This document shows, in pieces, positions 47,807 to 63,214 of a stretch of 64,000 nucleotides of DNA (the first letter of the stretch is position 1; every line of letters begins with the position of its first letter). Under the pieces are notes generated by a model. It searched no databases, was not told the origin of the DNA, and worked only from the letters and a program-made list of their open reading frames with translations. The position numbers were made by a program, and so were the translations under genes. Location: NCBI GenBank assembly GCA_963765495.1, contig CAVXWP010000002.1, forward strand, positions 512,001 to 576,000. The letters are read 5' to 3'. This DNA comes from Blastocatellia bacterium (GTDB lineage: Bacteria > Acidobacteriota > Blastocatellia > UBA7656).

Positions 47807-47891
47807 GCCTAACGCCGAGTTCAGCGGCGCGCTGGTAGCCGAGGGATAATGAAATGGTGGAATGCGCGTCCGCTGGAATGAGCACTTAGAC
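47807..47891 (-). repeat. attC1 (subtype A; R'' degenerate)
   Basis: gcctaacgccgagttcagcgg…ccgctggaatgagcacttagac. Confidence 0.9.
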
Positions 47892-47918
47892 GCGGTCTGC
47901 GTCTTGAGCGGAAGCTCT

Positions 47919-48359
47919 TTATTCCGTTTTCTGCTCATTGACCACCGTCTCTAACGAGCGCGTGGTGTGTTCTGTGACGCTGAACGCTGATTCAGGAAGT
48001 ACGCGATGCTTTGCCTCACTAAGCTCTTTCGCTGCTTCTTTATCAGTCTTCTTTCGACTCAATAACATCGAGACGAAAACGCCTTCGAGCCCAAGCATTA
48101 TTAGAAAACTTAGCAAGGTAATTGCGATAATCAGCCCCATATTTTCAGGTCCGAACACCATCTTCATCGCCATCATTAAGAAGATGATAGCTCCAAGGCC
48201 GAAGACGAAGACTGCTGTCATAAAAAACAGGAGCTTTTCAGACTTCACCTCTGATGCCTTGCTGACATCATCACCTTTTTCCCCACTCAGCTTAGCTCCG
48301 CAGTGGTTGCAATAGCTCAAGTTTGGTGAAACTGTCGAACCGCATTTTGAACAATACAT
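47919..48359 (-). CDS. cassette: zinc-ribbon 2-TM membrane protein
   Basis: CSKCG…CNHCG, two TMs and a C-terminal SVTEHTT. Confidence 0.8.
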   Translation of the reverse strand: MYCSKCGSTVSPNLSYCNHCGAKLSGEKGDDVSKASEVKSEKLLFFMTAVFVFGLGAIIFLMMAMKMVFGPENMGLIIAITLLSFLIMLGLEGVFVSMLLSRKKTDKEAAKELSEAKHRVLPESAFSVTEHTTRSLETVVNEQKTE

Positions 48360-48435
48360 ACTCTTCACCTCTCCGAGGCCATACGATAGGGCAAGTTGTT
48401 GTGTTCGGCAACGATGTGCTCGACCGGTGACAAGC

Positions 48436-48520
48436 GTCTAACGATGAGTTCAGCGGCGCGCTGGCAGCAACGGGAAACTGAATCATTGGAAAGCGCGTCC
48501 GCTGGAATGAGCAGTTAGGC
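48436..48520 (-). repeat. attC2 (subtype A)
   Basis: gtctaac…gttaggc palindrome. Confidence 0.9.
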
Positions 48521-48529
48521 CGAATTCAG

Positions 48530-48898
48530 TCATTTGAACTCATTGAGCCAGCGTATTTGGTTCTTCAATTCATCAACTGATAGTGAGTTCAATAACCTCA
48601 ATAATCTATGTAATAGAACGGCTACTGTTTCAGCAGTCGAAAGAATTATGCCAAAATGCTCTTTGCCTTCTTCGAGATACTTCTCGTGCAACTTAGTGAA
48701 ATCAGCAAAGTTAAAAGTGACAATCGCACGCTGTTCACTCACTGCCCAATCAAATTGGGCCTTATCATCGTCTGACAACTTTCCGGCCTCTTGAGAGGAT
48801 ACAGTATCAAAGCCATAGCGCCGAAGCTGCACAGCCAGGCGGGGTGACAGATGTTCGTTCAAATAAAGCTTTGGGGGATTATGCAACGGGTTGGGCAT
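48530..48898 (-). CDS. cassette TA: DUF5615/Mut7-like PIN toxin
   Basis: KLYLNEH…DD…RAIVTFNFADF…HFGII. Confidence 0.85.
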   Translation of the reverse strand: MPNPLHNPPKLYLNEHLSPRLAVQLRRYGFDTVSSQEAGKLSDDDKAQFDWAVSEQRAIVTFNFADFTKLHEKYLEEGKEHFGIILSTAETVAVLLHRLLRLLNSLSVDELKNQIRWLNEFK

Positions 48899-49175
48899 GA
48901 CTCTCTAACCAATGCTCATAACTGTTTTGATAACGTAGTCGATCAATTTCCTCTTGGTTGTCGTGGTAGTAAGCAAGGGCGCTGAATACCTGAGCAGGGG
49001 TCAAATAATTCCACTCAGCCAAAATCTCCTCAACTGACATCCCAGCTTTATAGTAGTAGTCAACTAAATGCCATACAGCTATCCGTGTGCCTTCTATAGT
49101 TGCTTCGCCTCCGCAGACGCCTAGAACTTTTACGACATGTGGGTAGGGAATGTAATGCATATTTTGTTCTGTCAT
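48879..49175 (-). CDS. cassette TA: DUF433 antitoxin
   Basis: GVCGGEATIEGTRIAV…ALAYYHDNQEEI. Confidence 0.9.
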   Translation of the reverse strand: MTEQNMHYIPYPHVVKVLGVCGGEATIEGTRIAVWHLVDYYYKAGMSVEEILAEWNYLTPAQVFSALAYYHDNQEEIDRLRYQNSYEHWLESHAQPVA

Positions 49176-49581
49176 AAAGTTACCTCAATTGCTTTTTCCC
49201 TGAATTGCAATATTACCACATTTACCTTCTGAGAGTCTTATTTTGATGATCAGCACGATATACTGCGAGGGCCTGCTCTGAAAATAAAAGGGGTGCTAAA
49301 TGTTGATAACGAGTAGATGAAGACAAACAACTCCGAGCCTGTGCGATATTACTTCTGCACAGCTTCATCAAACTGGTTGTCGGTAGGGCATTGGTTAATA
49401 AGCATGAGTCTGCTCTACGTGCTCAAAGGCAACAATTCGGGGTACCAGAAATATGCCCAGGTCAAACTGCTATACAGGCTCGAAGCACCAAGGACCGTTC
49501 GACCTTCATACCGACATACAAAATTCTATCATGGCTCTCACACATTTTCATCATTCGAAGGTGAGCCGCAGGCTCATGATG

Positions 49582-49667
49582 AACTAACGAGGAGATAACC
49601 GGCCCGCTGTGGCCCCCGATGCCATTGAGAAGGTGGCAAGCGCGTCCGGTTGATGGACCTGTTAGGC
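49582..49667 (-). repeat. attC3 (subtype B)
   Basis: aactaacgaggagataaccgg…ccggttgatggacctgttaggc. Confidence 0.88.
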
Positions 49668-50088
49668 GCATCTCATCTTGCAGGTTCAATAGAGATGGCC
49701 CTGTCCATATGCAAAGCCGCGCCAACAGATCGCCTCCTCTTAAGCATGATTTAAGGAGTAGCGCGGCGGACTGATTGTAACACGATAGCTGGCAGACAGG
49801 TTCTGTTTGCAATGTGGTTGACAACCAGTCAGCGATTCCCGGTTAGACCGGAATTGAAGCGAACAAAGGAGATTAGAAATCGTGAAATTGCGTTGTAATT
49901 AAGGCAATCACAGCACTTAGCGCAAAACACCGATTACATCTATCCGATTTTGCTATAACTGTTGGTACAACAGAATTTACTTTCGCAATTATCTTTTTCG
50001 CTTCCTCTTTTGATTTCATCAACTTACAACCTGACCGGGAATTGCTGACAACCAGTGTGCCTCATTTTCACGGATGGCTTTCCTGTGC
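49668..50088. other. gene-less cassette, family 1, carrying a MITE
   Basis: Homologous to 59149-59341; 194 bp after removing the MITE and one TSD. Confidence 0.85.
49830..50047. mobile_element. 218-bp MITE
   Basis: 17-bp IRs CAGCGATTCCCGGTTAG / CTGACCGGGAATTGCTG (15/17); 9-bp TSD ACAACCAGT; absent from sister cassettes. Confidence 0.85.
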
Positions 50089-50175
50089 GCTTAACGACGG
50101 AGATAACCGGCGCGCTGTGGTCTCCGCGTCATCTGAGCAGGTGGAATGCGCGTCCGGTTCATGGACCAGTTAGGC
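50089..50175 (-). repeat. attC4 (subtype B)
   Basis: gcttaac…gagataaccgg…gttaggc. Confidence 0.9.
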
Positions 50176-50462
50176 GCGCTCCGCTTTGTCGGTTCAATTC
50201 TGCACATTCTTTGAGCAGGCCGCGCTAGGAGTTCGTTGCTTTTCACCAATCGGTTTTCGAGTAATGGCTCAGTTATGCGGGGAGGAAACAGCGTAAATCC
50301 TTTATTTGCAATGAGGGCATCTCAGCTTTCCCCGCGTAACTGACCGATTACATTTTCGAGTTGCGAGGCGGAATGATTCTACCAGCAATGCTTGTAGACA
50401 GGTACTCCTTGCTTCGTCTTTGGCGATCAGTGTGGTTCGTTTTCTTGGACCACTTCCTGCGC
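50176..50462. other. gene-less cassette, divergent family 2
   Basis: No credible ORF; GCCGCGC present; ends TTCCTGCGC like family 2. Confidence 0.7.
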
Positions 50463-50548
50463 GCTTAACGCCGGGGATCAGCGGCCCGCTGTGGGCAAAG
50501 GGATAATGAGGCGGTGGCACGCGGGTCCGCTGAATGCCACGGTTAGGC
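50463..50548 (-). repeat. attC5 (variant ATCAGCGG…CCGCTGAAT)
   Basis: gcttaac…gttaggc. Confidence 0.9.
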
Positions 50549-50812
50549 GCGTTCTGATTTGTAAGTTCGTCACAGATGAAGATTCCTGTCGTTCAAGCCG
50601 CGCAAGCTTACTTTACCTTTTAGCGGGACTTTGACTCTACCCTTTCGACTAGCGCGGCGAAGTGTGAGTCTAACTCGACAGACGTAGACAGGTCATTCTA
50701 CCCTGCAATCTGACGACCAGTGTGAGTCTAACAGCACAGCTTGTAGACAGATAATATTGGCTGCGATCTTGGCGACCAGTTTGGTTAATTCTCACCGACC
50801 AATTTCCTGCGC
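50549..50812. other. gene-less cassette, family 2
   Basis: Starts GCGTTCTGATT…GTCACAGAT; homologous to 52110-52370 and 52970-53230. Confidence 0.85.
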
Positions 50813-50897
50813 GCTTAACGCCGAGTTCAGCGGCGCGCCGGTAGCTGGTGGAACACAAAACGTTGGCACGCGCGTCCGCTGGAATGAGCAGTTAGGC
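50813..50897 (-). repeat. attC6 (subtype A)
   Basis: gcttaac…gttaggc; PIN stop codon lies in R''. Confidence 0.9.
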
Positions 50898-51284
50898 TTG
50901 GTCCAATATTTTGACATCATATGCAAGTATATTACTGTCCACAGTTACCAGAGTCATATCCTTTTCCAATGCCTGGCATATCAAGATTCTATCAAACGGA
51001 TCACGATGAATCATTGGGAGGGTGGCCAGTCTTGCTACACTCCCTTCCTTCAATGGCAGACTCTCAATCTTATGTTCGTCCCTTTGCTTTGGTATGTAAC
51101 TGCCCGGAGGTTCAGGCAATGGCAGCTTCCCTATTTGATACTTGATAATTATTTCCCATAATGAAACAACGCTCAAAAACACATCATTCTCAGGGCTACG
51201 GATGGCTTCCAGAAAGGAATCTGGAAGCCGAAAATCCCCAATGATGTACCAGAGGAAAATGTGTGTATCGAGAAGGAGTTTCAT
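50892..51284 (-). CDS. vapC: cassette TA: VapC/PIN toxin
   Basis: LLLDTHIFLW, SLWEI and HRDPFDRILICQA motifs. Confidence 0.92.
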   Translation of the reverse strand: MKLLLDTHIFLWYIIGDFRLPDSFLEAIRSPENDVFLSVVSLWEIIIKYQIGKLPLPEPPGSYIPKQRDEHKIESLPLKEGSVARLATLPMIHRDPFDRILICQALEKDMTLVTVDSNILAYDVKILDQA

Positions 51285-51520
51285 CTATCTTCAAATTCTT
51301 TGATAATAGCCTCCGGCAGTGGGGCGTCGAAGTCATCAGGCACTATGAAATTCCCCGCAGCTAAAGCAAAAGGGCGAGGAGAACGAGAGGCTGAAATGAT
51401 GGGTTTGATTTCAGCAACGGGCTTACCGGCCCTAATAATAATAATACTCTCGCCAGCCTCGACACGTTCGATATAGGTCAAGAGGTTGCGCTTCATTTCA
51501 TCTATGGTAATTGGAAGCAT
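51281..51520 (-). CDS. cassette TA: Phd/YefM antitoxin
   Basis: VEAGE.III.RAGKPVA…VPDDFDAPLP. Confidence 0.88.
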   Translation of the reverse strand: MLPITIDEMKRNLLTYIERVEAGESIIIIRAGKPVAEIKPIISASRSPRPFALAAGNFIVPDDFDAPLPEAIIKEFEDR

Positions 51521-51582
51521 AGGACAATTATCAAGCAGGTTTCTCATAAAATCAAACAAGGGTATGCCGAGGTCGATGCGGA

Positions 51583-51667
51583 GCCTAACACCGAGATAAC
51601 CGGCCCGCTGTGGTCGGAGGGATAATGAATCGCTGGCACGCGGGTCCGGTTGATTGAGCGGTTAGGC
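51583..51667 (-). repeat. attC7 (subtype B; identical to attC17)
   Basis: gcctaacaccgagataaccgg…gttaggc. Confidence 0.9.
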
Positions 51668-52022
51668 GGTCCCTTGCCTGTTTCATTTCTTGCGCTTGGC
51701 TGACCCTGATCCTCCTATTTTCACTCTCACTTTCTGAGACAGCTTTTCCTGTCATTGCCAAGGAAGCAGCTTGATGTGCAAGCTTTGTCCTTCCCATTCA
51801 GGCTTCTCTACCCCTTGCCTCAACAGGTGGTTGTGCTGCGAAGGTATCTTTTCGAGGCAGCATTTTCATTGAGCCAGAGTGAATAATCCTTTGGAAGAAA
51901 CATCCTATGAAGGAACAAGAGAAGAGAGAAGCGAGCAGGTGGCTGTCCTGGCGATGACTCACCTGAGCATGTTTTTCCATCACTGTTTGGCGAGTCGTCT
52001 CCCTCTCAATCGGTGATCTGAC
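51668..52022. other. gene-less cassette, family 3
   Basis: Pyrimidine-rich left half and purine-rich right half; ends ATCGGTGATCTGAC. Confidence 0.75.
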
Positions 52023-52109
52023 GCCTAACGTCCTGGTTGAGCGGCCCGCTGTGGCATCCCCTTCATCTGAATAGTTGGCATGCGGGTCCGGTCGAACCGG
52101 TTGTTAGGC
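52023..52109 (-). repeat. attC8 (variant GGTTGA…TCGAACC)
   Basis: gcctaac…gttaggc. Confidence 0.88.
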
Positions 52110-52370
52110 GCGTTCTGATTTGCAAGTGCGTCACAGATGATTGCATTGGTTCGAGCCGCGCCTGCTTTCTTTGCCTTACAGCTGTATTTTGGCTCACCCT
52201 TTTCGAGAAGCGCGGCGGAGTGTGAGGCTAACAGCTTGGCTCATAGACAGGTCTACTTCGCTGCAATCTGACGAGCGATGTGAGTTTAAAAGCATTGCTT
52301 GTAGGCAGATATTCTTCGTCGCATCCTTGGCAATCAATGCCTCTCTTTCTCACCGACCAACTCCCGGCGC
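52110..52370. other. gene-less cassette, family 2
   Basis: 261 bp; GCCGCGC-48 nt-GCGCGGC. Confidence 0.85.
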
Positions 52371-52456
52371 GCTTAACACCGAGTTCAGCGGCGCGCCGTG
52401 GCCTCCGCTTCAACTGAGTAGCTGGAATGCGCGTCCGCTGGAATGAGCAGTTAGGC
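52371..52456 (-). repeat. attC9 (subtype A)
   Basis: gcttaac…gttaggc. Confidence 0.9.
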
Positions 52457-52882
52457 GGCTCCTTTCGGGATTCATTCATTTCCTTGGGCTTTCCTGACAG
52501 GCTTCTTCCATTTCTTATCTCCTGTTTCATCTCAGTTTCTCCTCTTGCGCGCAATTCATACCTTCTCCGCTGGGGCAGGTTTTCTTGTCGGGGAAACTGC
52601 TTGATGTGCCAAGTTCCTCCTTTCCAAACAGTCTTCTCTGGCTCTTTGCTCAACAGGTAATTGGCTGCCGGAGTATCTTTGCGAGATAGGTTTATCTTTG
52701 AGCAAGCCTGAAAAGAGAGCATCAGAAGAAAGGAGTTCAGATAAGGGAGAGTTGAGAGAAACAAACAGAGTTGAATCGGGTAAAAAGGAGCGAGAGGCGA
52801 GCAAGTAGCAGTCCTCACTATGTCTCACTCGATCATGTTTTCATATCATTGCTTGGTGAGTCGTATCGGTTGTGAGATTGAC
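52457..52882. other. gene-less cassette, family 3
   Basis: Starts GGCTCC; shares TCAACAGGT…GCTG…GTATCTTT and GAGTCGT with 51668-52022. Confidence 0.7.
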
Positions 52883-52969
52883 GCCTAACGCCGGAGATAA
52901 CCGGCGCGCTGTGGCCCCCGATGCCATCCAGAAGGTGGTATGCGCGTCCGGTTGATCGACCAGTTAGGC
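52883..52969 (-). repeat. attC10 (subtype B; same core as attC23)
   Basis: gcctaac…gttaggc. Confidence 0.9.
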
Positions 52970-53230
52970 GCGTTCTGATTCGCAAGTATGTCACAGATAA
53001 TTGCCTTCGTAATAGCCGCGCTGGCCCACTTTGCCTTTTAGCGAGGCTTTGACCTATCCTATTAAAGAAGCGCGGCGAGGTGTGAGGCTGACTCGACAGA
53101 CGAAGAGAGGTGATCGCTGGTTGCAATCTGAGGGCCAGTGAGAGTCAAACAGCACAGCTTGAAGGCAAGTATTGTCGGCTGCGATCTAAACGACCAGTGT
53201 GATTCACTCTCATCAACCAACCTCCTACGC
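52970..53230. other. gene-less cassette, family 2 (exact copy at 61141-61401)
   Basis: 261 bp; GCCGCGC-48 nt-GCGCGGC. Confidence 0.88.
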
Positions 53231-53317
53231 GCTTAACGCCCCGGTTGACCGGACCGCTGTGGCCTCCCCTTCAAGCGAGTGGTTGGCTTGCGGGTCCGGT
53301 CGAACCGGTTGTTAGAC
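53231..53317 (-). repeat. attC11 (variant like attC8)
   Basis: gcttaac…gttagac. Confidence 0.88.
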
Positions 53318-53728
53318 GCCGCTTTCAGCCATCAACGCCTTGAACCCTGCTTGCTCAAAATCTTGATCGAATGTCAGTGCTTCTGTTACTCCAGCATCCT
53401 TCATCGCTATAAATGAGATGCAGTCTATCAATCCCCAATCTTTGTCTTCGTACTTCTTGTATAGATCAAATGCCCGCTCGAACAGTTCTGTCGTGAGCCG
53501 TACTATTTGTACTTCCTCAGAGTCCAAGAAATCTTCAATGACATCGATGGCCTCTTGTTTATAATTGCGCGCTAATCCGTTCCCGATCTCAAGCAGCACC
53601 GCGTCCGTAACGAGCAATGGATTGTCCTCATATTTAGCGGCTAATTCCCCAGCCTTTGCATGGTATTGATCGCGCGGGTTGATTAAAGCGACGACGAAGA
53701 GCGTGTCAACGAAGATTCGGTTCGGCAC
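53312..53728 (-). CDS. vapC: cassette TA: VapC/PIN toxin
   Basis: IFVDT…DQYH…VLLE…DCISF…LTFDQDFEQAGF. Confidence 0.92.
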   Translation of the reverse strand: MPNRIFVDTLFVVALINPRDQYHAKAGELAAKYEDNPLLVTDAVLLEIGNGLARNYKQEAIDVIEDFLDSEEVQIVRLTTELFERAFDLYKKYEDKDWGLIDCISFIAMKDAGVTEALTFDQDFEQAGFKALMAESGV

Positions 53729-53933
53729 GTTTTTCTCCGCTCATATAGAGGTCAAAATTTGTAGAGAAGTCTTCTGGAGCATCTATCTTGATATTTCTCA
53801 GCTTTGACATGAAGCTCTGTTTCTGGTCTTGTTGCTTAGATTGAGTGAAGTCCTTCACCAGTTTATACAGTTCGTCCAAGTCCTGTTCACTGATCCGATC
53901 AATCTCAACTTGTATTAGCTCTTTCGTTGTCAT
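53706..53933 (-). CDS. cassette TA: putative antitoxin
   Basis: 75-aa ORF overlapping the PIN gene; APEDFSTNFDLY. Confidence 0.8.
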   Translation of the reverse strand: MTTKELIQVEIDRISEQDLDELYKLVKDFTQSKQQDQKQSFMSKLRNIKIDAPEDFSTNFDLYMSGEKRAEPNLR

Positions 53934-53995
53934 ACGTTGCTCCCTTCACCAACATTATTAATCATCCGGGCAATCGAGGCAACTGCACCTCAGGC

Positions 53996-54080
53996 GTCTA
54001 ACGCAGGCATCAGCGGCCCGCTAGCAGCAAAGGGATAATGAGGAGGTGGTTTGCGGGTCCGCTGGAATGAGCAGTTAGGC
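53996..54080 (-). repeat. attC12 (hybrid arms)
   Basis: gtctaacgcaggcatcagcgg…ccgctggaatgagcagttaggc. Confidence 0.9.
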
Positions 54081-55022
54081 TCTCGCACCCTCAGACTCAT
54101 CGATTTCTTTATTTTGGTTTCCTTCCCAACAGAGTGGGAGATCAAGATCATCAATAAGCGAGGGAGCATCAGGATCACCTGTTCCTATGAATATCTTACT
54201 TGGCTCCCATTCAAGCAAAACCCTCGCTATCATTCTTGTTGCTTGTGTTCTAACACTTGGCTTTTTCCTGATTAAGACATGCTCATCATAATTACTACAA
54301 GTATAGTGCAGATGCTTCCCGCATCTATGTAAATGACCTTGATATATAGTCTCCCCTTTCAGGGAAATTAAAACTGCTATTGACGGGAAGGTAGGATTAA
54401 CATAGATCGAACATTGAGAGTCACTTTCCCAAGATTCCTCTGTGAGCTTCTTTGCCATATTTTCATCAATTGTATTGCTGAGGCTCGATGAACAAGTTGG
54501 GCAATAGTCTATATCTAGCGGTTCGCTTAGTGTAATGAGCTTAATACCTTTGCCAAGCCATTCCAATTCAGACAATGCTCCATCAATCCATTGTTCGGGT
54601 GGTCCGCTTGCCACAAGATGGTAAACTCGCTCAAATTCGATCTTTTGATTCTGCCACTGAAGGATTAGCCTCATTGAGTGAATCTGTGAATGAGTACCAT
54701 AGAGATTCAAGACAGCCAATATTTTGGGGCTAGGCTTCGCTGCTTCCTCAACGAATGCCTCCCAGGATTTCTTAAACTCAAGGATACGGTCAGCGCCCAA
54801 TTCAATATGATTACTTGTGTAAGCTCCTGGCCTATGATGGGCATCGTGGTCCTTAACGCAAAGCACAGCCAAATTAGGATCAACCGTATTTGATGCATCA
54901 CCATCAATATGATGAATGTTTAGCCCGATCCCTCGTTGCTTACAAACACAACATGCATTCGCATTTCGTTTTAGCAAATGTTCTCTTTGTTTTGTAGTTG
55001 GATCAACTCGTTTTCTAGACAT
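54075..55022 (-). CDS. cassette: N-terminal HNH nuclease-like protein
   Basis: CCVCK…IHHIDGDASN…NLAVLCVKDH; stop codon in R''. Confidence 0.8.
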   Translation of the reverse strand: MSRKRVDPTTKQREHLLKRNANACCVCKQRGIGLNIHHIDGDASNTVDPNLAVLCVKDHDAHHRPGAYTSNHIELGADRILEFKKSWEAFVEEAAKPSPKILAVLNLYGTHSQIHSMRLILQWQNQKIEFERVYHLVASGPPEQWIDGALSELEWLGKGIKLITLSEPLDIDYCPTCSSSLSNTIDENMAKKLTEESWESDSQCSIYVNPTFPSIAVLISLKGETIYQGHLHRCGKHLHYTCSNYDEHVLIRKKPSVRTQATRMIARVLLEWEPSKIFIGTGDPDAPSLIDDLDLPLCWEGNQNKEIDESEGARA

Positions 55023-55198
55023 ACTTCTGAAAACTTGCGACTCCTTTGGAATTGAGCCCAACGGCCCAATTGATGTGCGAACGAGCAATTATTGTACGTA
55101 GAATAGGCGAGATAATCCATCGTACATGGTCACGTGGGGTTGAAAAAATAAATTTGCTTTGGATTATGCTTACCAGTGTTTGCGATGTTTCAGCGTGA

Positions 55199-55284
55199 GC
55201 CTAACGCCGAGTTCAGCGGCGCGCTGTGGGCTTCGATGCAAGCGAACAGTTGGCACGCGCGTCCGCTGGAATGAGCAGTTAGGC
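55199..55284 (-). repeat. attC13 (subtype A)
   Basis: gcctaac…gttaggc. Confidence 0.9.
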
Positions 55285-55400
55285 CGAATACATCAAATAG
55301 CCTGAGAGGCCCTTCTTCGCTAGGTTCAAGAAGTTCAACGAGGGTCACAGCATTACATCTAGCATAGACGACCGCACTCCTAATCTTACGGACATTGCTT

Positions 55401-56258
55401 TTAAGCTTCGATGCCCGAGTGTTTTAATAATCCTCGATGAATGCGGTCATGCCGCTTATTCGATAATTCAATGTATTTTTCCAACCCATTTAGGCCAATT
55501 ATGTCGATCCGATAGGATGATCGAGTGTACGATCTGGACTTAAAATGAAACTTCATTGGAGCCATCTCGATTTCAGCTATATCTATTTCTCCTTGTTCAC
55601 TCAAATCTGCTGCCAGAAGGATACCATCCAGAATAACAATTGGCTTTACAAAAACTAAGTATGGTGGATTGCTGAATACATCTATTACCTTCTCTACCCC
55701 TTCCAATTTGGGCCAAGACTCTGCCTTAAGAGCATGCTCGGCAGCCTTACAAACGGATACACATGCCGAATACCATTGCGAGGGGCTATTAGGATTCTTA
55801 AAGCTCTCGTGAATCCCATACCCATTCCATTTCAATTGCGAGATCAGTGATTCTGAAGTCATATAATCATAAAGAATGCGCGGATCAAAAGGTAAATTGT
55901 CATAAAACGTCAAATTGTTCCATGCATCACCAGTTCGTAATGGCGTATCGGACAGATCCTCCCTGAAGATTACCTAAGGTTTCTCGGATTTCTTGACCTC
56001 TGCAACTATGTGATACCAACTTTGGATAAGCTTCTTATCATCAAGCTTGTGCATTAACATTCTGTGTGCTTGCAAATCACATTCTCTCGTCTTCTGTTCA
56101 TCTTTATCAAAGTAATTGAGGGTTCCTGAACAAGACCATTCTTTGGCAAGAAAGGTTCTTATTACTCTCATTTCAGAACCAAATCCAGATTTTTCCAAGT
56201 CTTTAATCACACTTTGTTTAAAGGCATTGTTCATAAAACCCATTCTACCAGTATCCAT
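55401..56258 (-). pseudogene. cassette: PD-(D/E)xK-like protein broken by an in-frame TAG
   Basis: SGFGSE…RECDL…AEVKKSEKP*VIF; both ORF halves in frame, joined by 20 sense codons. Confidence 0.7.
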
Positions 56259-56271
56259 TTGAATCGTTTAG

Positions 56272-56357
56272 GCCTAACACCGAATTCAGCGGCGCGCTGT
56301 GGCTCACGATGCAATCGAGGGGGTGGCAAGCGCGTCCGCTGGAATGAGCAGTTAGGC
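56272..56357 (-). repeat. attC14 (subtype A)
   Basis: gcctaac…gttaggc. Confidence 0.9.
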
Positions 56358-56361
56358 TCAG

Positions 56362-56691
56362 TTAGGGGGCGAACATCTCTGTTAATACTGTCAAAACATC
56401 TGATTCTATTTTCCTGTTAACCTTCCCTAATTTTCTTACGAGTCTTACTTTGTCAACAGTCCGAATCTGATCCAATACGATTTGGCCTTTTTTGCCTTGG
56501 AATGTCAAAGCAACTCTCGTTGGGTAGCTTCTTCCTTTCGTTGTCATTGGAGCCACAATCACAGTGTTAATATGTCTATTCATTTCATCAGGGGAAATGA
56601 TTAAACAAGGCCGTGTCTTCTTAATCTCACTGCCAATTGTAGGATCAAGATTGATGAGATAGACTTCAAATCTCCTGACTACCATTGCCAC
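56362..56691 (-). CDS. mazF: cassette TA: MazF/PemK toxin
   Basis: LDPTIGSEIKKTRPCLIISP…DQIRTVDKVRL. Confidence 0.93.
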   Translation of the reverse strand: MAMVVRRFEVYLINLDPTIGSEIKKTRPCLIISPDEMNRHINTVIVAPMTTKGRSYPTRVALTFQGKKGQIVLDQIRTVDKVRLVRKLGKVNRKIESDVLTVLTEMFAP

Positions 56692-56933
56692 TCTTCTTCA
56701 TCCCATTTAGTTGAGTTAGGAAAATAGTCATCAACAGATGAATCATCCTGATTTTCAGTCATAGTTTGAAAGGCTTGATCCCAAACATGCCTGGGATGCT
56801 GAGCAGATCGAATAATAATTTGATTGTCGAGTGCCTCAAGGTCAACCTCATCAGTAATGTTACTCTGTTCCAAGAGTAACTTTGGGATGCGAATACCTTG
56901 GGAATTACCAATTTTTATAATACGAGATTTCAT
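56679..56933 (-). CDS. mazE: cassette TA: MazE/AbrB antitoxin
   Basis: IIKIGNSQGIRIPK…WDEEEWQW. Confidence 0.92.
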   Translation of the reverse strand: MKSRIIKIGNSQGIRIPKLLLEQSNITDEVDLEALDNQIIIRSAQHPRHVWDQAFQTMTENQDDSSVDDYFPNSTKWDEEEWQW

Positions 56934-57006
56934 AAGCACAATGTAATTACGAAGAGGCCAATAAGTCAAGTAAGAAAAGCAAGCGAGTTCCAGTAGACAA
57001 GTGCGA

Positions 57007-57091
57007 GCCTAACGCCGAGTTCAGCGGCGCGCTGTGGTTGGAGGGATAATGAAACATTGGTATGCGCGTCCGCTGGAATGAGCAGTTAGGC
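57007..57091 (-). repeat. attC15 (subtype A)
   Basis: gcctaac…gttaggc. Confidence 0.9.
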
Positions 57092-57122
57092 CGGTTTGCA
57101 AGGCTCATTTGTTGTATCGCTA

Positions 57123-57551
57123 TCAAAGTGCAAAAGGATTGGTTATCTTTAGCCGATTCTCTATTATCATTCCTCCACTCATATCTTCTGTGTACAGCAT
57201 CTCTGCTGCTCCCAACAGCGCACTTGAAACGATGAGGCTGTCCCAAAAAGAAAACTGCAACTTCTCCCGTAGCTCTGAACCCTTCAACAATATGCTTCTG
57301 TCCATAACAACGACATCGTATTTATTATAGAAAGAGATGATGAGTGGTTGAAGACGTTGTTCATCGAATTGAGCTTTCTTGATGAGGTTGACACATATCT
57401 CATTAATGACTTGAGTGCTGACGATTATGTCGTTTTGTTGAATTATTGTTTTTGCAATAACTGATTTGTTCAGGTCTTGACCAGGAATAAAAGCATATAG
57501 CCAAATATTGGTATCAATAAAACATAAGGGTGTAGGACTAAGGTTGCTCAT
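57123..57551 (-). CDS. cassette TA: PIN-domain toxin
   Basis: FIDTNIWLY, STQVINE, FWDSLIV, LYTEDM and NPF motifs. Confidence 0.9.
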   Translation of the reverse strand: MSNLSPTPLCFIDTNIWLYAFIPGQDLNKSVIAKTIIQQNDIIVSTQVINEICVNLIKKAQFDEQRLQPLIISFYNKYDVVVMDRSILLKGSELREKLQFSFWDSLIVSSALLGAAEMLYTEDMSGGMIIENRLKITNPFAL

Positions 57552-57750
57552 AAATCTCTTCTCTCGCAAGAGGGCTGAATCCTTCAATGTTGAGGGGGTG
57601 AGCTAGAAGGTGTTCGATCATATCAAAATTTTCAGAGTTGTCTTCTGTAAGAAGAATGACCCGCACAACACCTTTGAACCTATCCCTGTGTTCTTCAGGA
57701 ATAGTGATATTTCCGTCTCTTACTCTCGTTTGAAACTCAATTGCATTCAT
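57538..57750 (-). CDS. cassette TA: putative antitoxin
   Basis: AIEFQT…GNITIP…VRVILL…REEIYE; overlaps the PIN gene. Confidence 0.8.
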   Translation of the reverse strand: MNAIEFQTRVRDGNITIPEEHRDRFKGVVRVILLTEDNSENFDMIEHLLAHPLNIEGFSPLAREEIYEQP

Positions 57751-57784
57751 AACTTAATTCCCTTCAATCTCTCTGCAATAAGAC

Positions 57785-57884
57785 AATGAAGCTCCTCGCA
57801 GCAAGCTGCGAGGTATCGCGCAAGAGGGGAGGAAATGGAGCCGCAGCAAGCTGCGGGGAATTGCCTGACCCTCCTCAGATTAAA
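57785..57884. mobile_element. REP/IS200-like double-hairpin mini-element
   Basis: CCTCGCAGCAAGCTGCGAGG (57794-57813) and CCGCAGCAAGCTGCGG (57841-57856). Confidence 0.6.
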
Positions 57885-57913
57885 GCGTCGAGCGTACTAG
57901 GTCAAGTGCGAGG

Positions 57914-57998
57914 GCCTAACGACGAGTTCAGCGGCGCGCCGGTACCAATGGGATATTGAAACGTTGGCAAGCGCGTCCGCTGGAATGAGCAGTTAGGC
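57914..57998 (-). repeat. attC16 (subtype A)
   Basis: gcctaac…gttaggc. Confidence 0.9.
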
Positions 57999-58134
57999 TT
58001 GCCCCCGATAAGCAGCTAGTGCCATTTCAACAAAGCAATCCATTTTCTACTCAGTCCGATTTCAAAAGCGATATTGGGAAGGCAAAACAGCTTTCTTGCC
58101 ATACTACGATGGGGGGCAAAACGAGATGGTAGCG

Positions 58135-58440
58135 TTAGGAGTAGTCGGGTACATAGCAAAAGTATTTCGCTCTCCCAGTACCCTGACATCTGGAACAAGC
58201 TAAAACGGCTCGTTTATCCATTCCGCTGGGATACTGCCCTATTACCGGCCCAGCGACTGTCCGACTCCCATTGCAGGCATCGCATTGTCCCTCATACTCA
58301 AATCTCTTCACCTGCCCAGTGCCGCCACACTGTTGACATATCCGTGTGGCAGAGCGGTATCCACTCTTCTCGAATCCAGCATCGTAGGATTCTGTGTATG
58401 TTTCCTTGCCCGAACCGCTACATTTATCACAGATCGTCAT
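58135..58440 (-). CDS. cassette: stand-alone DnaJ-type zinc-finger protein
   Basis: CDKCSGSG, CQQCGGTG, CDACNGS and CSRCQGTG; GGAGG RBS. Confidence 0.8.
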   Translation of the reverse strand: MTICDKCSGSGKETYTESYDAGFEKSGYRSATRICQQCGGTGQVKRFEYEGQCDACNGSRTVAGPVIGQYPSGMDKRAVLACSRCQGTGRAKYFCYVPDYS

Positions 58441-58624
58441 AAACGAAAGCACCTCCGTTTCGAGAAATGTGTCACTTCGGAACTAACTCCAAAGCAGTTG
58501 CCCTAAAGAACAAAGATGTTATGTAAAATGGGAGAGATTTTCAATTTGAAACAACAGCCAATCCTCATAAAAATAGAGCTGATGCTGCATTATCCATACA
58601 AAGAATTTCAGAGTAACAATGAGA

Positions 58625-58709
58625 GCCTAACACCGAGATAACCGGCCCGCTGTGGTCGGAGGGATAATGAATCGCTGGCACGCGGGTCCGGTTGATTGAG
58701 CGGTTAGGC
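58625..58709 (-). repeat. attC17 (subtype B)
   Basis: Identical to attC7. Confidence 0.9.
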
Positions 58710-59063
58710 GGTCCCTTGCCTGTTTCATTTCTTGCGCTTGGCTGACCCTGATCCTCCTATTTTCACTCTCACTTTCTGAGACAGCTTTTCCTGTCATTGC
58801 CAAGGAAGCAGCTTGATGTGCAAGCTTTGTCCTTCCCATTCAGGCTTCTCTACCCCTTGCCTCAACAGGTGGTTGTGCTGCGAAGGTATCTTTTCGAGGC
58901 AGCATTTTCATTGAGCCAGAGTGAATAATCCTTTGGAAGAAACATCCTATGAAGGAACAAGAGAAGAGAGAAGCGAGCAAGAGGCTCTCCTCGCTATGAC
59001 TCGCCTGAACTGGTTTTCGTAGCGTTGCTTGTTGAGTCGTTTCCCTTTCATCGGTGATCTAAC
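58710..59063. other. gene-less cassette, family 3 (partial exact copy of 51668-52022)
   Basis: Identical up to 58979, diverged afterwards. Confidence 0.8.
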
Positions 59064-59148
59064 GCCTAACGCCGAGATAACCGGCGCGCTGTGGTCGGAG
59101 GGATAATGAGGCGTTGGAATGCGGGTCCGGTTGATGGACCAGTTAGGC
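59064..59148 (-). repeat. attC18 (subtype B)
   Basis: gcctaac…gttaggc. Confidence 0.9.
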
Positions 59149-59341
59149 GCATTCCACCTTGAAGGTTCGGTAAAGATACCACTGTCGAAATGCCAAGCCG
59201 CGCCAACAGATAGCTTCGACTCAACCGGAATTTATCGGGTAGCGCGGCGCAGTGATTGTGTCAGTACACTTTGTAGACATGTAGTCTGATTGCTTGGTTG
59301 ACGATCAGTGTAGCTCATTATCACGGATCGCTTCCCTGTGC
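59149..59341. other. gene-less cassette, family 1
   Basis: 193 bp; GCCGCGC-38 nt-GCGCGGC. Confidence 0.85.
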
Positions 59342-59426
59342 GCTTAACGCAGGCATCAGCGGCCCGCTGTGGTGAAAGGGAAAATGAGGAGTTGGCAAGC
59401 GGGTCCGCTGAATGCCTCAGTTAGGC
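59342..59426 (-). repeat. attC19 (variant like attC5)
   Basis: gcttaac…gttaggc. Confidence 0.9.
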
Positions 59427-59494
59427 CCGACTCTGAGTCTGCATCGCTATGCGTGTTCACAGGTATGTGTTCATAACCACTTCTTACTGTAACG

Positions 59495-60004
59495 TCAAAC
59501 TCCTGTGACATCTGATAGCACTGTTGGTCGCCCGTCACCTTTCATTTCCACTATGCTTAAACTTCCATCCGTTTCAAGTACTACTGCTTCGACCTCCTCT
59601 TCTCCTTTTATGCCTTGACTGCGGATCGCTTGAAGTATCTCCCCTTCGTTCACTCGCTCCGCTTTCATCGCACTCCTAAGAAATACTCCTCGATGAAATA
59701 GTAACTTCGGCTCTGACTTGACCAACTTGCTTATTGTCTTTGAACGAATTGAAAGCCAGGTGATTATGAATTGAAGAAATATCAACAAGGAAAGAGCCAG
59801 CAATCCTTCTGCAAGTGGAGTATTCTTGGAGAGAATGATTGTGGCTAAAATTGACCCCAAGGCAACTGTCACTACGAAGTCAAAGGCATTCATTTTAGAA
59901 AGAGTTCGTTTGCCAGAAATGCGGAGTAATAGGATAAGAGTAGGATAGGTGCAGATGGTGGCAACAGCAATTCGTGCCAACCCAGACCAGCTAGTGAAGA
60001 ACAT
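59495..60004 (-). CDS. cassette: DUF421/YetF membrane protein
   Basis: LRISGKRTLSKMNAFDF…VVLETDGSLS. Confidence 0.9.
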   Translation of the reverse strand: MFFTSWSGLARIAVATICTYPTLILLLRISGKRTLSKMNAFDFVVTVALGSILATIILSKNTPLAEGLLALSLLIFLQFIITWLSIRSKTISKLVKSEPKLLFHRGVFLRSAMKAERVNEGEILQAIRSQGIKGEEEVEAVVLETDGSLSIVEMKGDGRPTVLSDVTGV

Positions 60005-60068
60005 ATCAACTCCCCGAGTAAATTGAACAAGCGTCTTGAGAGATTATACATGACAGGAAACATTTTGG

Positions 60069-60155
60069 GCTTAACGCCGGAGATAACCGGCCCGCTGTGG
60101 CCCCCGATGCCATTGAGAAGGTGGCAAGCGCGTCCGGTTCATGGACCTGTTAGGC
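60069..60155 (-). repeat. attC20 (subtype B; near-identical to attC3)
   Basis: gcttaac…gttaggc. Confidence 0.9.
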
Positions 60156-60347
60156 GCATTCTACCTTGCAGGTTCATTACAGTTGGGCTTGTCTCACATC
60201 AAGCCGCGCTGATAGTTTGCTTCCCGTTGACCAATAAATCACAAATAGCGCGGCGCGGTGATTGTGTCAATACTGTTGGCAGACAGGTGATCTGATTGCT
60301 CCGTTTACGATCAGTGTCGCTCATTTTCACGGATGGCTTTCCTGTGC
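60156..60347. other. gene-less cassette, family 1
   Basis: 192 bp; GCCGCGC-38 nt-GCGCGGC. Confidence 0.85.
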
Positions 60348-60432
60348 GCCTAACACCGAGATAACCGGCCCGCTGTGGGCTCAGGGATAACGAGAAGTTG
60401 GTTTGCGGGTCCGGTTGATCGACTTGTTAGGC
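60348..60432 (-). repeat. attC21 (subtype B)
   Basis: gcctaac…gttaggc. Confidence 0.9.
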
Positions 60433-60772
60433 GGCTCCCCTTGCTGATTTATCTCTTCGCCTTCGCTCGTTTTCATCTTCCAATCCTCTTCCTCCCTTCT
60501 CTTTGCAGTTTCTTCCTGACTGCTTAAAAGCTGTTTGCCTGGTCGAAAGCTTCCTTCCCAAGCAGGTCTGCTTTGGCCAAGGCTTATCAGGCAAACTGGC
60601 TTGAAGAGGCTCTTTGGCAAATAACCCAGAGACAGAGCATAGCTGAAAGCACTGCATTGTAGAAGTGTGAGCCTGATGAAGGCGAGAAGATTGATCGTTC
60701 TCGGCAGTGACTCCATAACAGGTCTTTTTGGCATCGCTTGATGAGCCGTTTCCTCTCTATCGATATTCTGAC
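60433..60772. other. gene-less cassette, family 3
   Basis: Starts GGCTCCC; pyrimidine-rich left half; ends ATCGATATTCTGAC. Confidence 0.7.
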
Positions 60773-60859
60773 GCCTAACGCCGGAGATAACCGGCGCGCT
60801 GTGGCCTGCAATGCAAGCGAGACATTGGTATGCGCGTCCGGTTGATGGACCAGTTAGGC
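60773..60859 (-). repeat. attC22 (subtype B)
   Basis: gcctaac…gttaggc. Confidence 0.9.
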
Positions 60860-61053
60860 GCATTCCACCTTGTAGGTTCAATAGAGTTACTCGTTCCCCT
60901 CTGCCAAGGCGCGCCCAGTGTTGATTTGCTTTTCAATCAGCAAATATAGGAGGGCGCGGCGGACTGATTGTGTCAGCACTGTTGGCAGGCAATTAGTCTG
61001 ATTGCTTCATAGACGAGTAGTATGCCTCTTTTTCACGGATGGCTTTCCTGTGC
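60860..61053. other. gene-less cassette, family 1
   Basis: 194 bp; stem variant CGCGCCC/GGGCGCG. Confidence 0.85.
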
Positions 61054-61140
61054 GCTTAACGCCGGAGATAACCGGCGCGCTGTGGCCCCCGATGCCATCC
61101 AGAAGGTGGTATGCGCGTCCGGTTGATCGACCAGTTAGGC
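61054..61140 (-). repeat. attC23 (subtype B)
   Basis: Core identical to attC10. Confidence 0.9.
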
Positions 61141-61401
61141 GCGTTCTGATTCGCAAGTATGTCACAGATAATTGCCTTCGTAATAGCCGCGCTGGCCCAC
61201 TTTGCCTTTTAGCGAGGCTTTGACCTATCCTATTAAAGAAGCGCGGCGAGGTGTGAGGCTGACTCGACAGACGAAGAGAGGTGATCGCTGGTTGCAATCT
61301 GAGGGCCAGTGAGAGTCAAACAGCACAGCTTGAAGGCAAGTATTGTCGGCTGCGATCTAAACGACCAGTGTGATTCACTCTCATCAACCAACCTCCTACG
61401 C
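61141..61401. other. gene-less cassette, family 2 (duplicate)
   Basis: Identical to 52970-53230. Confidence 0.88.
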
Positions 61402-61486
61402 GCTTAACGACGAGTTCAGCGGCGCGCCGGTAGCTGATGGAACGCGAGCAGTTGGAATGCGCGTCCGCTGGAATGAGCAGTTAGGC
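61402..61486 (-). repeat. attC24 (subtype A)
   Basis: gcttaac…gttaggc, abutting the IS4. Confidence 0.9.
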
Positions 61487-61487
61487 T

Positions 61488-62971
61488 CAATACCTGTCAA
61501 ATAAGCCACGAGACGGCATTTATGGCATACTTTCGAGTTGATAGAAACGAAAGTTGTCAAGGAGCCGCCTCGCTTGAGTTACAAAATACGCCATATTACC
61601 GATGAACGAAAGTTCTGTGATCATCTCTCTATTGATGCCATCTCTGATGCCGTCTCTATTGAATTAATCCAAGAGGTTCTTGATCTCCACAATGCCTCTC
61701 ACAAACGACATCGCAAACTCACTATGAGCGCTGTCGTGCTCATTATCATCGCTATGAATCTGTTTTCACATTTCTCTATTGGACATGTCGTGCGGAGAGT
61801 CTTTCAGGGTTTGCGTTTCATCTGGCCTGATCCTGACTTTCCTCCTCCTAAACACAATGCAATATCTTATCGTCGTTACCAGTTGGGGCCTCGTCCTTTA
61901 GTCTCATTGTTTCATCGTGTTGCACAACCTATGGCAACAGATGAAACTCGTGGCGCTTTTGCATTTGGACTGCGATTAATGGCCCTTGACGGCTCTATTG
62001 AAGAAGCCCCGGACACTCCGGAAAATGATGCTGCTTTTGGGCGGTTGGCTTCTGATCGCGGGAAGTGTTGCTTCGTGCAAATTCAGGCTGTCTACCTTGT
62101 AGAATGTGGCACTCATGCCATTATTGATGCAGGATTTTGGCCTGCAAAAAGCAGTGAACGAGTTGGAGGTTTTCGCCTGCTAAGAAGCCTGGGAAAAGGG
62201 ATGCTTTTGATGTGGGATAGAGGCTTTCACTCCTATGATATGGTAGTTGCGACACTTGAGCGAGGGTCTCAATGTCTTGGTAGATTGCCTGACAATGTGA
62301 AACCGGAACACCTTTGCACGCTAGAAGATGGAACGTGGTTAGGCTATATCAGACCAACACAAAAAGGACGGCGAAATAAAGAAGACAAACAGTTGGTTCG
62401 GATAATCTCTTACACTTTTACAGACCCGACCCAAGCAGGATACCAGAAGAGATACCGCATAGTCACAACACTATTGGATGAAAGGAAGTATCCGGCCAAA
62501 GAGTTGGTGTGTTTGTATCACGAGCGATGGGAAATCGAGATAGTCATAGATGAGATAGATACACATCAACGACTAGCAGGAAGGCCATTGAGAAGCCTAA
62601 AACCAGAGGGAGTCATACAAGAGTTATACGCATTATTGATAGCGCATTATGCAGTAAGAAAACTGATACACGAAGCAGCAAATGAGGCAGAAGTAGACCC
62701 GGATCGGATAAGTTTTGTAGGAGCATTGAGGATAATCCAAGAAGCAATACCAGAATTCCAAATGGTAGAAAAGGAGCAAAAGGAGCAATTATACAAGAGG
62801 CTATTGAGAGATATAGGAGAGCAAAGGTTACCAGAAAGGCGAGCCAGATCGAATCCGCGAGTAGTGAAGAGAAAGATGAGTGGGTTCAATCTGAAGCGAC
62901 CACAGCATTACAACTGGCCCAAGCCACAGCTACGATTTTGTGATGCTATTTTGCTTATTTGACAGGTATTG
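61488..62971 (+). mobile_element. IS4-family insertion sequence (IS4Sa-like, 1484 bp)
   Basis: Perfect 19-bp IR CAATACCTGTCAAATAAGC; 10-bp TSD CAGTTAGGCT (61478-87, 62972-81). Confidence 0.95.
61538..62962 (+). CDS. IS4-family DDE transposase
   Basis: ALDGS, WDRGF, YHERWEIE (YREK-like) and PRVVKR motifs; start codon uncertain. Confidence 0.93.
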   Translation: MIETKVVKEPPRLSYKIRHITDERKFCDHLSIDAISDAVSIELIQEVLDLHNASHKRHRKLTMSAVVLIIIAMNLFSHFSIGHVVRRVFQGLRFIWPDPDFPPPKHNAISYRRYQLGPRPLVSLFHRVAQPMATDETRGAFAFGLRLMALDGSIEEAPDTPENDAAFGRLASDRGKCCFVQIQAVYLVECGTHAIIDAGFWPAKSSERVGGFRLLRSLGKGMLLMWDRGFHSYDMVVATLERGSQCLGRLPDNVKPEHLCTLEDGTWLGYIRPTQKGRRNKEDKQLVRIISYTFTDPTQAGYQKRYRIVTTLLDERKYPAKELVCLYHERWEIEIVIDEIDTHQRLAGRPLRSLKPEGVIQELYALLIAHYAVRKLIHEAANEAEVDPDRISFVGALRIIQEAIPEFQMVEKEQKEQLYKRLLRDIGEQRLPERRARSNPRVVKRKMSGFNLKRPQHYNWPKPQLRFCDAILLI

Positions 62972-62974
62972 CAG

Positions 62975-63214
62975 TTAGGCTGCCTCCAAAACCTTCTTGG
63001 CTACGTCTTTTCCGGCCGTTGGTGGAGGCAAAGGTCTTCCATCTCTTTTCAATAAATCAATCCATTCATCCACAATCTGACATAGTTCTGCAAATACCTG
63101 CGCTTCATCGTTTCCATGACAACAGGGACCTATGATTCCTGGGCATTGCCCCACAAAACAATTGTCTTCATCTGACCATTCAACAATCTTGATATAGCGG
63201 GCGCTTTCTTTCAT
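62975..63214 (-). CDS. hicB: cassette TA: HicB-like antitoxin
   Basis: IVEWSDED…CPGI…HG…GRPLPPP. Confidence 0.85.
   Translation of the reverse strand: MKESARYIKIVEWSDEDNCFVGQCPGIIGPCCHGNDEAQVFAELCQIVDEWIDLLKRDGRPLPPPTAGKDVAKKVLEAA

Follow-up and report, generated by a model that had tools for sequence, protein, structure and literature searches.

Gene-less cassette families within the chromosomal integrons of a Blastocatellia bacterium

The cassette array and its gene-less units

The stretch of DNA analyzed here, 64,000 nucleotides in length and referred to as the window in the following, covers positions 512,001 to 576,000 of contig CAVXWP010000002.1 (assembly GCA_963765495.1) of a Blastocatellia bacterium; its right-hand part is taken up by the cassette array of a sedentary chromosomal integron, in which many cassettes carry no gene. 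Repeat finding combined with a motif scan of the window yielded 25 attC sites of 85–87 nt each that span 47807-63673 and delimit 24 complete cassettes (Table 1). The sites possess RYYYAAC...GTTRRRY core sites together with an imperfect inverted repeat, and the crossover position, which lies within GTTA(A/G)GC, sets the limits of the cassettes, whose contents are bounded by these attC sites.

We read the array from right to left, because its genes lie on the minus strand, the longer arm of the attC sites of the window is the 5' arm on that strand, and the integron integrase (intI) genes of this genome diverge from arrays of this orientation. With the array on the minus strand, each content therefore owns the attC at its lower coordinate. 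There are three intI genes in the genome, all of them open frames that score 475–487 bits against TIGR02249 (cut-off 265), and each diverges from an array oriented like that of the window. These genes sit on contigs other than the window's; the window's array leaves the window at its right end, heading towards the attI/intI side, and stops at a contig end.

Eleven of the complete cassettes in the window carry open reading frames (ORFs), all of them on the minus strand, and most of these coding cassettes specify proteins with recognizable Pfam domains (PIN with Phd, MazEF, HicAB, YetF, and DUF433 with DUF5615), a repertoire that is typical of chromosomal integrons. The other 13 of the 24 are without a credible ORF. 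This count had been given in a preliminary description of the DNA, made from the letters alone, and our attC-bounded cassette table agrees with it down to the coordinates and lengths of the units. The same description had sorted the gene-less contents into three families. Alignments of the window contents (mean column identity of 58% in family 1, 76% in family 2, and 71% in family 3) uphold the first two groups (F1 and F2), including the recognition of the content at 49668 as an F1 unit that harbors a miniature inverted-repeat transposable element (MITE). The members of the third group do align with each other, but they do not constitute a single family; clustering splits them into F3a and F3b.

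Table 1. The cassette array, the gene-less cassettes of the window, and the gene-less families of the genome
Feature	Position in window	Strand	Details
Cassette array, sedentary chromosomal integron	47807..64000	-	25 attC, 24 complete cassettes
F1 cassette with ~219-bp MITE	49588..50094	-	content from 49668, 421 bp; own attC 49582-49667
Divergent F1/F2-like gene-less cassette	50095..50468	-	content 50176-50462, 287 bp; attC 50089-50175
F2 gene-less cassette	50469..50818	-	content 50549-50812, 264 bp
F3a gene-less cassette	51589..52028	-	content 51668-52022, 355 bp
F2 gene-less cassette	52029..52376	-	content 52110-52370, 261 bp
F3a gene-less cassette, long variant with additional modules	52377..52888	-	content 52457-52882, 426 bp
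F2 gene-less cassette	52889..53236	-	content 52970-53230, 261 bp; identical to 61060-61407 (100%)
F3a gene-less cassette	58631..59069	-	content 58710-59063, 354 bp
F1 gene-less cassette	59070..59347	-	content 59149-59341, 193 bp
F1 gene-less cassette	60075..60353	-	content 60156-60347, 192 bp
F3b gene-less cassette	60354..60778	-	content 60433-60772, 340 bp
F1 gene-less cassette	60779..61059	-	content 60860-61053, 194 bp
F2 gene-less cassette	61060..61407	-	content 61141-61401, 261 bp
F1, genome-wide			34 copies + 2 with MITE; content 188-194 bp
F3a, genome-wide			32 copies; content 353-437 bp, plus one 841-bp outlier
F2, genome-wide			14 copies; content 249-264 bp
F4, genome-wide			14 copies, none in window; content 176-179 bp
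F3b, genome-wide			10 copies; content 338-363 bp

The contents at 51668 and 58710 are near-identical, that at 60860 is represented by six exact copies in the genome, and that at 59149 by eight, with different neighbors each time. Invariant boxes are seen in the latter cassette at 59197-59203 (GCCGCGC) and 59242-59248 (GCGCGGC), with a spacing of 38 nt. The divergent 50176 unit is also matched by the covariance model of F1, and identical variable stretches of 21–23 nt link it (50176-50462) to two F1 sub-families; this sharing of variable segments indicates that modules were probably shuffled by recombination among gene-less families. The MITE-like element, 219 bp long and with inverted ends, occupies approximately 49829-50048 of its F1 host cassette. 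Five copies of it, 99–100% identical, exist in the genome, two in duplicated F1 cassettes and three outside the arrays (contigs C16 and C14).

Extent, mobility, and position of the gene-less families in the genome

An attC profile was built from the sites of the window, and adjacent sites on the same strand were taken to define a cassette. This profile has 255 matches in the genome, 233 of them at full length, and the genome total amounts to 225 cassettes, with 82 on one contig segment. The five gene-less families F1, F2, F3a, F3b, and F4 account for 106 of the 225, and eight more cassettes, the 50176 unit included, lack a sense ORF of at least 60 amino acids (aa). Recurrence of the same families on this scale is far more than chance would produce. 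Every family copy in the genome stands in array orientation, and each array holds several paralogues that are alike over their whole length. With a GC content of 0.48–0.515, the gene-less families lie between the coding cassettes (0.452) and the genome (0.537).

Three of the families share parts. F2 copies, too, receive scores from the covariance model of F1, and the central F1 unit is present twice in F2; F1 and F2 therefore form one superfamily. F4 has the 5' GGRAAG-type box and the pair of GC boxes in common with them. Two unusual family members were noted. The 841-bp F3a content (G000:C9:8408-9248) consists of an 85-aa Cys-rich ORF (CxxC...CxxC) followed by an F3a unit, with no recognizable attC between the two, and is possibly a fused cassette. 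A degenerate 5' half of F1, located at about 600-800 of G000:C13:157800-159300, follows an attC-like end and is cut by an IS3 element; the contig that bears it has no other attC sites, and the fragment probably goes back to an array that was lost or relocated.

Distinct contents within a gene-less family have a median pairwise identity of only 0.68–0.77, with a minimum of 0.54, while recurrent coding cassettes are mostly exact duplicates (nine of the 15 multi-copy coding clusters are pairs or triplets of 100% identity). Judged by this divergence, the gene-less families are old.

Copies with identical gene-less content were found next to different neighbors on both sides in all 86 of 86 pairs; for coding paralogues, this was the case in 13 of 19 pairs. 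The gene-less copies were therefore placed singly and not through block duplication, and we infer from context alone that gene-less cassettes move as discrete units.

The attI junctions (AAAG joined to TTA(A/G)GC) of the three integrons lead directly into an F2, an F2, and an F3a cassette, so that the first slot after attI is gene-less in three of three cases. Because contig ends interrupt the arrays and leave more than one way of joining them, positional tests were run per contig segment. The gene-less fraction of the attI-proximal half exceeded that of the distal half in segments C2-high (0.71 vs 0.49, p=0.024), C6 (0.85 vs 0.50, p=0.10), C3 (0.67 vs 0.17, p=0.037), and C12 (1.0 vs 0.4, p=0.012), and the Stouffer combination of all seven segments yielded a one-sided p=0.004 for enrichment of gene-less cassettes towards attI. 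A rank test in which C17 and C2 had been joined was replaced, the join being unproven. Clustering of gene-less cassettes into runs was not significant.

The gene-less cassettes also tend to carry an attC of their own kind. Subtype B is attached to 65 of 104 gene-less but to only 14 of 112 coding cassettes (Fisher p=1e-14), and 71 of the 112 coding cassettes possess subtype A. This association is seen only when a content is paired with the attC at its low-coordinate side and therefore lends further support to the orientation deduced above. At least four arm subtypes can be distinguished among the attC sites of the genome, and a GGGATAATGA-type motif is conserved in the central loops of the attC sites of many gene-bearing and gene-less cassettes. 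Extended complementarity of the cassette ends was considered as a general trait of the gene-less units and dismissed: F1 and F2 show three extra pairs, and F3 and F4 no more than coding cassettes.

Outside this genome, the family contents were not found in 40 relatives, among which there is no genome of the same genus, or in 52 other genomes of the same taxonomic family (BLAST; F1 covariance model); in three of these 52, nothing beyond single attC-like sites turned up. Of 401 sampled genomes of the phylum, one contains the attC pattern, and that is the genome studied here. Searches of 72,556 plasmids and 50,697 phages did not recover the gene-less contents, and the YetF gene cassette alone has plasmid relatives. 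An exact F1 pattern hit at least 110 loci in a collection of genome contigs, and none among the matches listed fits the attC or family profiles; an exact pattern for the F1 3' end hit a single locus in a metagenome contig collection, a chance match. Contigs from two DNA data sets placed on 58625-61486 yielded no more than a raised summed depth over the multi-copy parts and joints of attC to attC that may stem from other places in the arrays, and we base nothing on them.

Other mobile elements flank or interrupt the array of the window. Its distal end is delimited by a block (41817-47520) in which one group II intron splits an IS3-family transposase gene (rve domain) and in turn has a second group II intron inserted into it. 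The Rfam matches to group II introns cover domains D1-D4 (42633-42745) and domains V-VI (46178-46278 and 47274-47350). One reverse transcriptase (RT)/maturase gene is split (42971-43885 and 46239-47270) around an intact RT/maturase gene (44499-46175), and the IS3 reading frame resumes immediately after 47350. An IS4-family insertion sequence (61487-62975) with a 474-aa transposase (61538-62962) is located in an attC, inside its R' end; inverted repeats (CAATACCTGTCAAATAAGC...) form the termini of the element, and CAGTTAGGCT is duplicated on both flanks.

Candidate explanations for the gene-less contents

Each gene-less family lacks an ORF common to all of its members. ORFs of at least 25 aa are missing altogether from two F1 variants and from the two commonest F4 variants, and in F3a the same peptide pieces are reached in different frames by different members. 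The synonymous share of single-base codon differences is flat over the six frames of all families (0.16–0.36), and stops occur in every frame, which bears out the earlier claim that a conserved reading frame is lacking. The synonymous test has a weak positive control because the coding paralogues are nearly all identical; one usable coding pair was left (seven synonymous vs four non-synonymous differences). Not one of the 14 ORFs of at least 61 aa that overlap gene-less cassettes of the window reaches the Pfam cut-off; these include the 196-aa and 90-aa ORFs of the F3a cassette at 52377..52888 and a frame of 166 aa, the 196-aa and 166-aa frames reading through attC sites. No relative of the 90-aa ORF was found in a collection of 5.8 billion proteins, within the length range searched. 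Chance ORFs reach 90 aa in F3a and 81 aa in F3b, and none is family-wide. In the sense of Boucher 2006 and Blanco 2024, where a gene-less cassette has no conserved ORF longer than 150–210 bp and no translated match, these families are gene-less. That they encode proteins of very small size (below about 50 residues) is extremely improbable in our view. Many F1 and some F2 contents do have a GTG at content position 18, behind AGGAAA, which opens a frame of 30–49 aa; however, this frame is not kept, since the two F1 variants mentioned lack it, other members start elsewhere, and one has a 1-nt insertion. Its synonymous share of 0.26 is like that of other frames, with the reservation about the control given above, and the commonest F4 variants offer no such frame either.

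As had been noted before for F1 and F2, members of a family differ by many substitutions and very few indels, with a median of 1–3 indel events vs 47–102 substitutions per pair in F1, F2, F4, and F3b. The resulting indel-to-substitution ratio of 0.034–0.072 is not obviously below the neutral ratio. Such an unremarkable value would be compatible with contents that are the decayed remnants of gene cassettes or of recombination sites, under neutral drift and not yet purged. Inverted repeats of the R-box-like form GTCTAC...GTTAGAC in F1 and F2, variable and read by eye, resemble the attI core; a truncated F1 relic exists outside the arrays; and some gene-less Vibrio cassettes derive from degenerated genes, according to the available text of Blanco 2024 (PMC11014356). 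We nevertheless regard decay as improbable. The contents have no translated similarity to any protein, and they are not attC-like, as no similarity to the attC profile was detected even at E up to 100. Clustered invariant boxes are common to families that can otherwise barely be aligned, and there are many identical copies in new contexts, which shows active movement of the units and sets them apart from mere relics. The possibility that the GC hairpin of the boxes is a hidden attC was rejected on the same profile comparison, and its loops are not self-complementary.

In the F1/F2/F4 superfamily, an invariant scaffold appears to surround hypervariable, unstructured segments whose lengths are fixed (38 or 48 nt, and about 30 nt). 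This scaffold consists of a GGRAAG-type box on the 5' side and a GCCGCGC/GCGCGGC clamp whose spacing does not vary; an F1 sub-family without the exact box pair seems, from the alignment, to preserve a GC stem whose register is shifted. It is conceivable, although very improbable, that the hypervariable segments carry specificity and that the cassettes are interchangeable modules of a 'programmable' kind, for example guides, decoys, or docking sites for proteins, in which case the integron would shuffle nucleic-acid modules in place of genes. The variable segments have no match elsewhere in the genome except in other array copies, and six cassettes had no match in the 50,697 phage records.

Conserved boxes combined with variable segments of fixed length could also be expected of small or structured RNA genes, either trans-acting small RNAs (sRNAs) like sRNA-Xcc1 or scaffold RNAs, and an integron-encoded sRNA is known from Xanthomonas (review PMC8876359, in its available part). 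One F1 cassette folded together with its attC on the array strand does so better than shuffled sequences (z=-3.6, 0 of 200 shuffles as good), while the opposite strand yielded z=-1.1. Whole F3a cassettes, in contrast, stay near their shuffles (z=-1.6 and -1.8), and the 38–48-nt segments between the GC boxes, which are not self-complementary, fold no better than shuffles (z of -0.6 to +2.3, 16 distinct loops). Rfam searches gave no match in the cassettes of the window, whether gathering scores or an E of up to 5 were applied, and none in an F4-bearing stretch at E up to 1. The consensus energies computed with RNAalifold are weak, and their covariation terms are tiny: -8.59 kcal/mol (covariation term -0.22) for 18 distinct F1 contents in the sense orientation, -9.23 kcal/mol (-0.21) for the F1 antisense strand (14 of the 18), and -2.11 kcal/mol (-0.47) for 25 distinct F3a contents in sense. 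Nearly all predicted pairs are invariant and hence uninformative either way.

A single clearly covarying pair joins the third base of the F1 content with the third-last (AU in eight, GC in five, broken in one). It lengthens an R-box stem that forms only when the cassette ends meet, as in an excised circle, and may represent one inherited change. A long-range pairing in F3a and F3b (84–93% paired cells, 9–18 compensated pairs in a ribosum-scored RNAalifold run) was discounted because standard RNAalifold gave no F3a structure; we treat it as low-complexity purine/pyrimidine pairing, the F3b part resting on the ribosum run. Likewise rejected was the idea that the correlated 5' and 3' insertions of F3a form a helix: members with just one of the two exist, the modules occur in all four insertion combinations, and they are therefore not obligate pairing partners. 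For F1 and F3a, a conserved fold backed by covariation was not found, and no promoter of their own is predicted for such RNAs. Taken together, an RNA gene seems quite improbable to us.

More weight, although still on the unlikely side, is to be given to promoter or transcription-control cassettes, whose boxes would start or block transcription of neighboring cassettes far from Pc. Promoter activity is known for gene-less cassettes of Vibrio (PMC11014356) and Treponema (PMC6557892), as far as the available texts go; the present array is long, its gene-less units are interspersed among coding cassettes, and conserved boxes exist in F1, F2, and F4. Scans of the window cassettes for sigma-70-like sites were, however, near-empty. 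There is no consensus site in the six gene-less cassettes of 58600-61500, where 2.1 were expected and the sole site lies inside the YetF gene; the gene-less cassettes of 49500-53400 contain one, on the antisense strand of an F2 unit. Nor is there a sigma-70-like site at a conserved position. In an alignment-anchored scan, no position with a match of at least 8/12 is present in most members of F1, F4, F3a, or F3b; the best sense-strand positions at this threshold are found in at most 1/29 F1, 2/12 F4, 2/13 F2, and 9/31 F3a contents. F2 has two weak antisense positions in 8–9 of 13 closely related copies. Moreover, the gene-less cassettes here are GC-richer than the coding ones, unlike the AT-rich Vibrio cassettes. 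These negative scans have to be read with the caveat that in silico prediction did not track the measured activity of gene-less Vibrio cassettes and is unreliable for units of this type (available text of PMC11014356).

The gene-less units are true cassettes in array orientation that lack a gene, occur in many copies, are old, have been moved individually, and lean towards attI. The explanation that we favor over promoter or insulator modules, giving it about an even chance of being correct, is that they are self-propagating, integrase-mobilized 'selfish' cassettes. Each unit would comprise a short non-coding content plus its own attC, and the integron integrases would excise and re-insert such units one at a time. 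By this route, the units would have multiplied within the three integrons to about half of all cassettes, with persistence secured by frequent recombination and low cost and not by an encoded product. Their abundance would follow from preferential recombination, and the boxes shared by F1, F2, and F4 may serve recombination or exert an effect in cis on neighboring cassettes. Selfish and promoter functions are not mutually exclusive.

Both functions had been listed in the preliminary description, next to structured sRNAs. Among its alternatives, selfish spread via IntI fits best, in view of the 86 of 86 differing contexts, the attI enrichment, the gene-less first slots in all three integrons, and the attC subtype of the gene-less units. 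Structured sRNAs, in contrast, are left without support, the consensus folds being weak, covariation minimal, and Rfam matches absent, and promoter modules find no backing in silico, where predictions are known to fail for gene-less cassettes (PMC11014356, available text). Protein-binding DNA, a further alternative named there, would be a possible role for the invariant GC boxes common to F1, F2, and F4.

Several observations weigh against the selfish explanation. A selfish unit needs just its attC, so that the internal boxes that have been kept at fixed spacing hint that the content has some function: clusters of invariant columns exist in F1 (longest run p=0.006), F2 (p=0.025), and F4 (p=0.018), and the pattern CCGCGC-N36-50-GCGCGG is present in 26/36 F1, 13/14 F2, and 13/14 F4 cassettes vs 3/119 others. 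Excision and insertion are conservative processes, so amplification would require an additional, presumed step, and preferential recombination is likewise presumed. The attC sites of gene-less cassettes are not better-folding, with mean bottom-strand dG values per family of -15.9 to -20.4 kcal/mol vs -18.7 kcal/mol for coding cassettes, and the corresponding test even runs counter to the idea of a 'better site' (Mann-Whitney p=0.016). F3a is split by its attC, as 16 of its 32 copies carry subtype A, the coding type, and 15 carry subtype B. Segments C17, C9, and C2-low exhibit no positional gradient, their halves being about equal, and contig joins inside the arrays are ambiguous. Finally, the absence of the families elsewhere rests on exact-pattern scans, one of them with at least 110 chance matches.

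Relation to known cassette systems

Gene-less paralogous cassettes are a known kind of element, and those of its defining features for which our tests were clear are found here, with confinement to the host lineage suggested by the searches made. The novelty implied by the preliminary description was too high, given that lineage-restricted paralogous non-coding cassettes of Vibrio were described in 2006 (PMC1382264). In the available text of that study (Boucher 2006, PMC1382264), non-coding cassettes make up 6–49% of Vibrio arrays, the upper value being that of V. vulnificus CMCP6 (107 of 219), and paralogous families reach up to 45 copies. Homologues of non-coding cassettes were reported there only within the vibrios, while coding cassettes had relatives outside, and the authors proposed selfish elements, or promoters and RNAs that serve the integron (PMC1382264). 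The Blastocatellia families resemble these Vibrio cassettes (PMC1382264) in lacking an ORF and a translated match, in forming multi-copy families, and in their share of the cassettes (106/225 vs 107/219); the confinement to the lineage may be shared as well, as the gene-less contents had no match in the plasmids searched, where the coding YetF cassette has relatives. They differ in belonging to another phylum, in their unrelated sequences and shorter contents (176–437 bp), and in a divergence down to 54% identity, as compared to more than 80% between Vibrio homologues in the text available (PMC1382264). Also unlike the situation in Vibrio, the gene-less cassettes are GC-richer than the coding ones, and a single genome carries three integrons, each with a gene-less cassette at its start.

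Most of 29–30 gene-less Vibrio cassettes displayed sense-strand promoter activity, in the available text of Blanco 2024 (PMC11014356), and ORF-less cassettes of Treponema act as promoters as well (Tansirichaiya 2019, PMC6557892, available text). Like these promoter-bearing cassettes (PMC11014356; PMC6557892), the units studied here have an ordinary attC and are interspersed in long arrays, and one of the Treponema promoter cassettes also occupies a first slot (PMC6557892). ORF-less cassettes in first position are rare elsewhere, however, with 1/42 and 1/5 in the counts available from PMC6557892, as compared to 3/3 here. The Vibrio cassettes in question measure 491–666 bp and are AT-rich (PMC11014356), whereas the present ones are shorter and possess no conserved sigma-70-like motif. 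In Xanthomonas campestris, an ORF-less integron cassette likewise encodes a trans-acting sRNA, sRNA-Xcc1 (Chen et al., 2011, as covered in the available part of review PMC8876359); in the present families, by comparison, there is neither a conserved fold nor an Rfam match.

These data show that the takeover of integrons by multi-copy gene-less cassettes is not confined to Vibrio and has reached the same extent, about half of the cassettes, in another phylum. The families offer good material for setting selfish against regulatory functions experimentally: they are short, combine invariant boxes with hypervariable stretches, have their own attC subtype, occupy the first slot of every integron, and are free of the AT-richness that may give rise to spurious promoters in Vibrio. 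In practice, half of an array of this kind will be annotated wrongly or interpreted too little by gene callers and in surveys of cassette amplicons.

Finally, general knowledge of MITEs suggests an analogy, as these are also non-coding, present in multiple copies, divided into sub-families, and mobilized in trans. Unlike MITEs, the gene-less cassettes use attC/attI site-specific recombination and possess neither terminal inverted repeats nor target duplications of their own. What sets the present case apart among gene-less cassettes is its host lineage, the presence of three integrons that each begin with a gene-less unit, the relative GC-richness and deep divergence of the families, and the construction of F1, F2, and F4 from boxes and variable segments.

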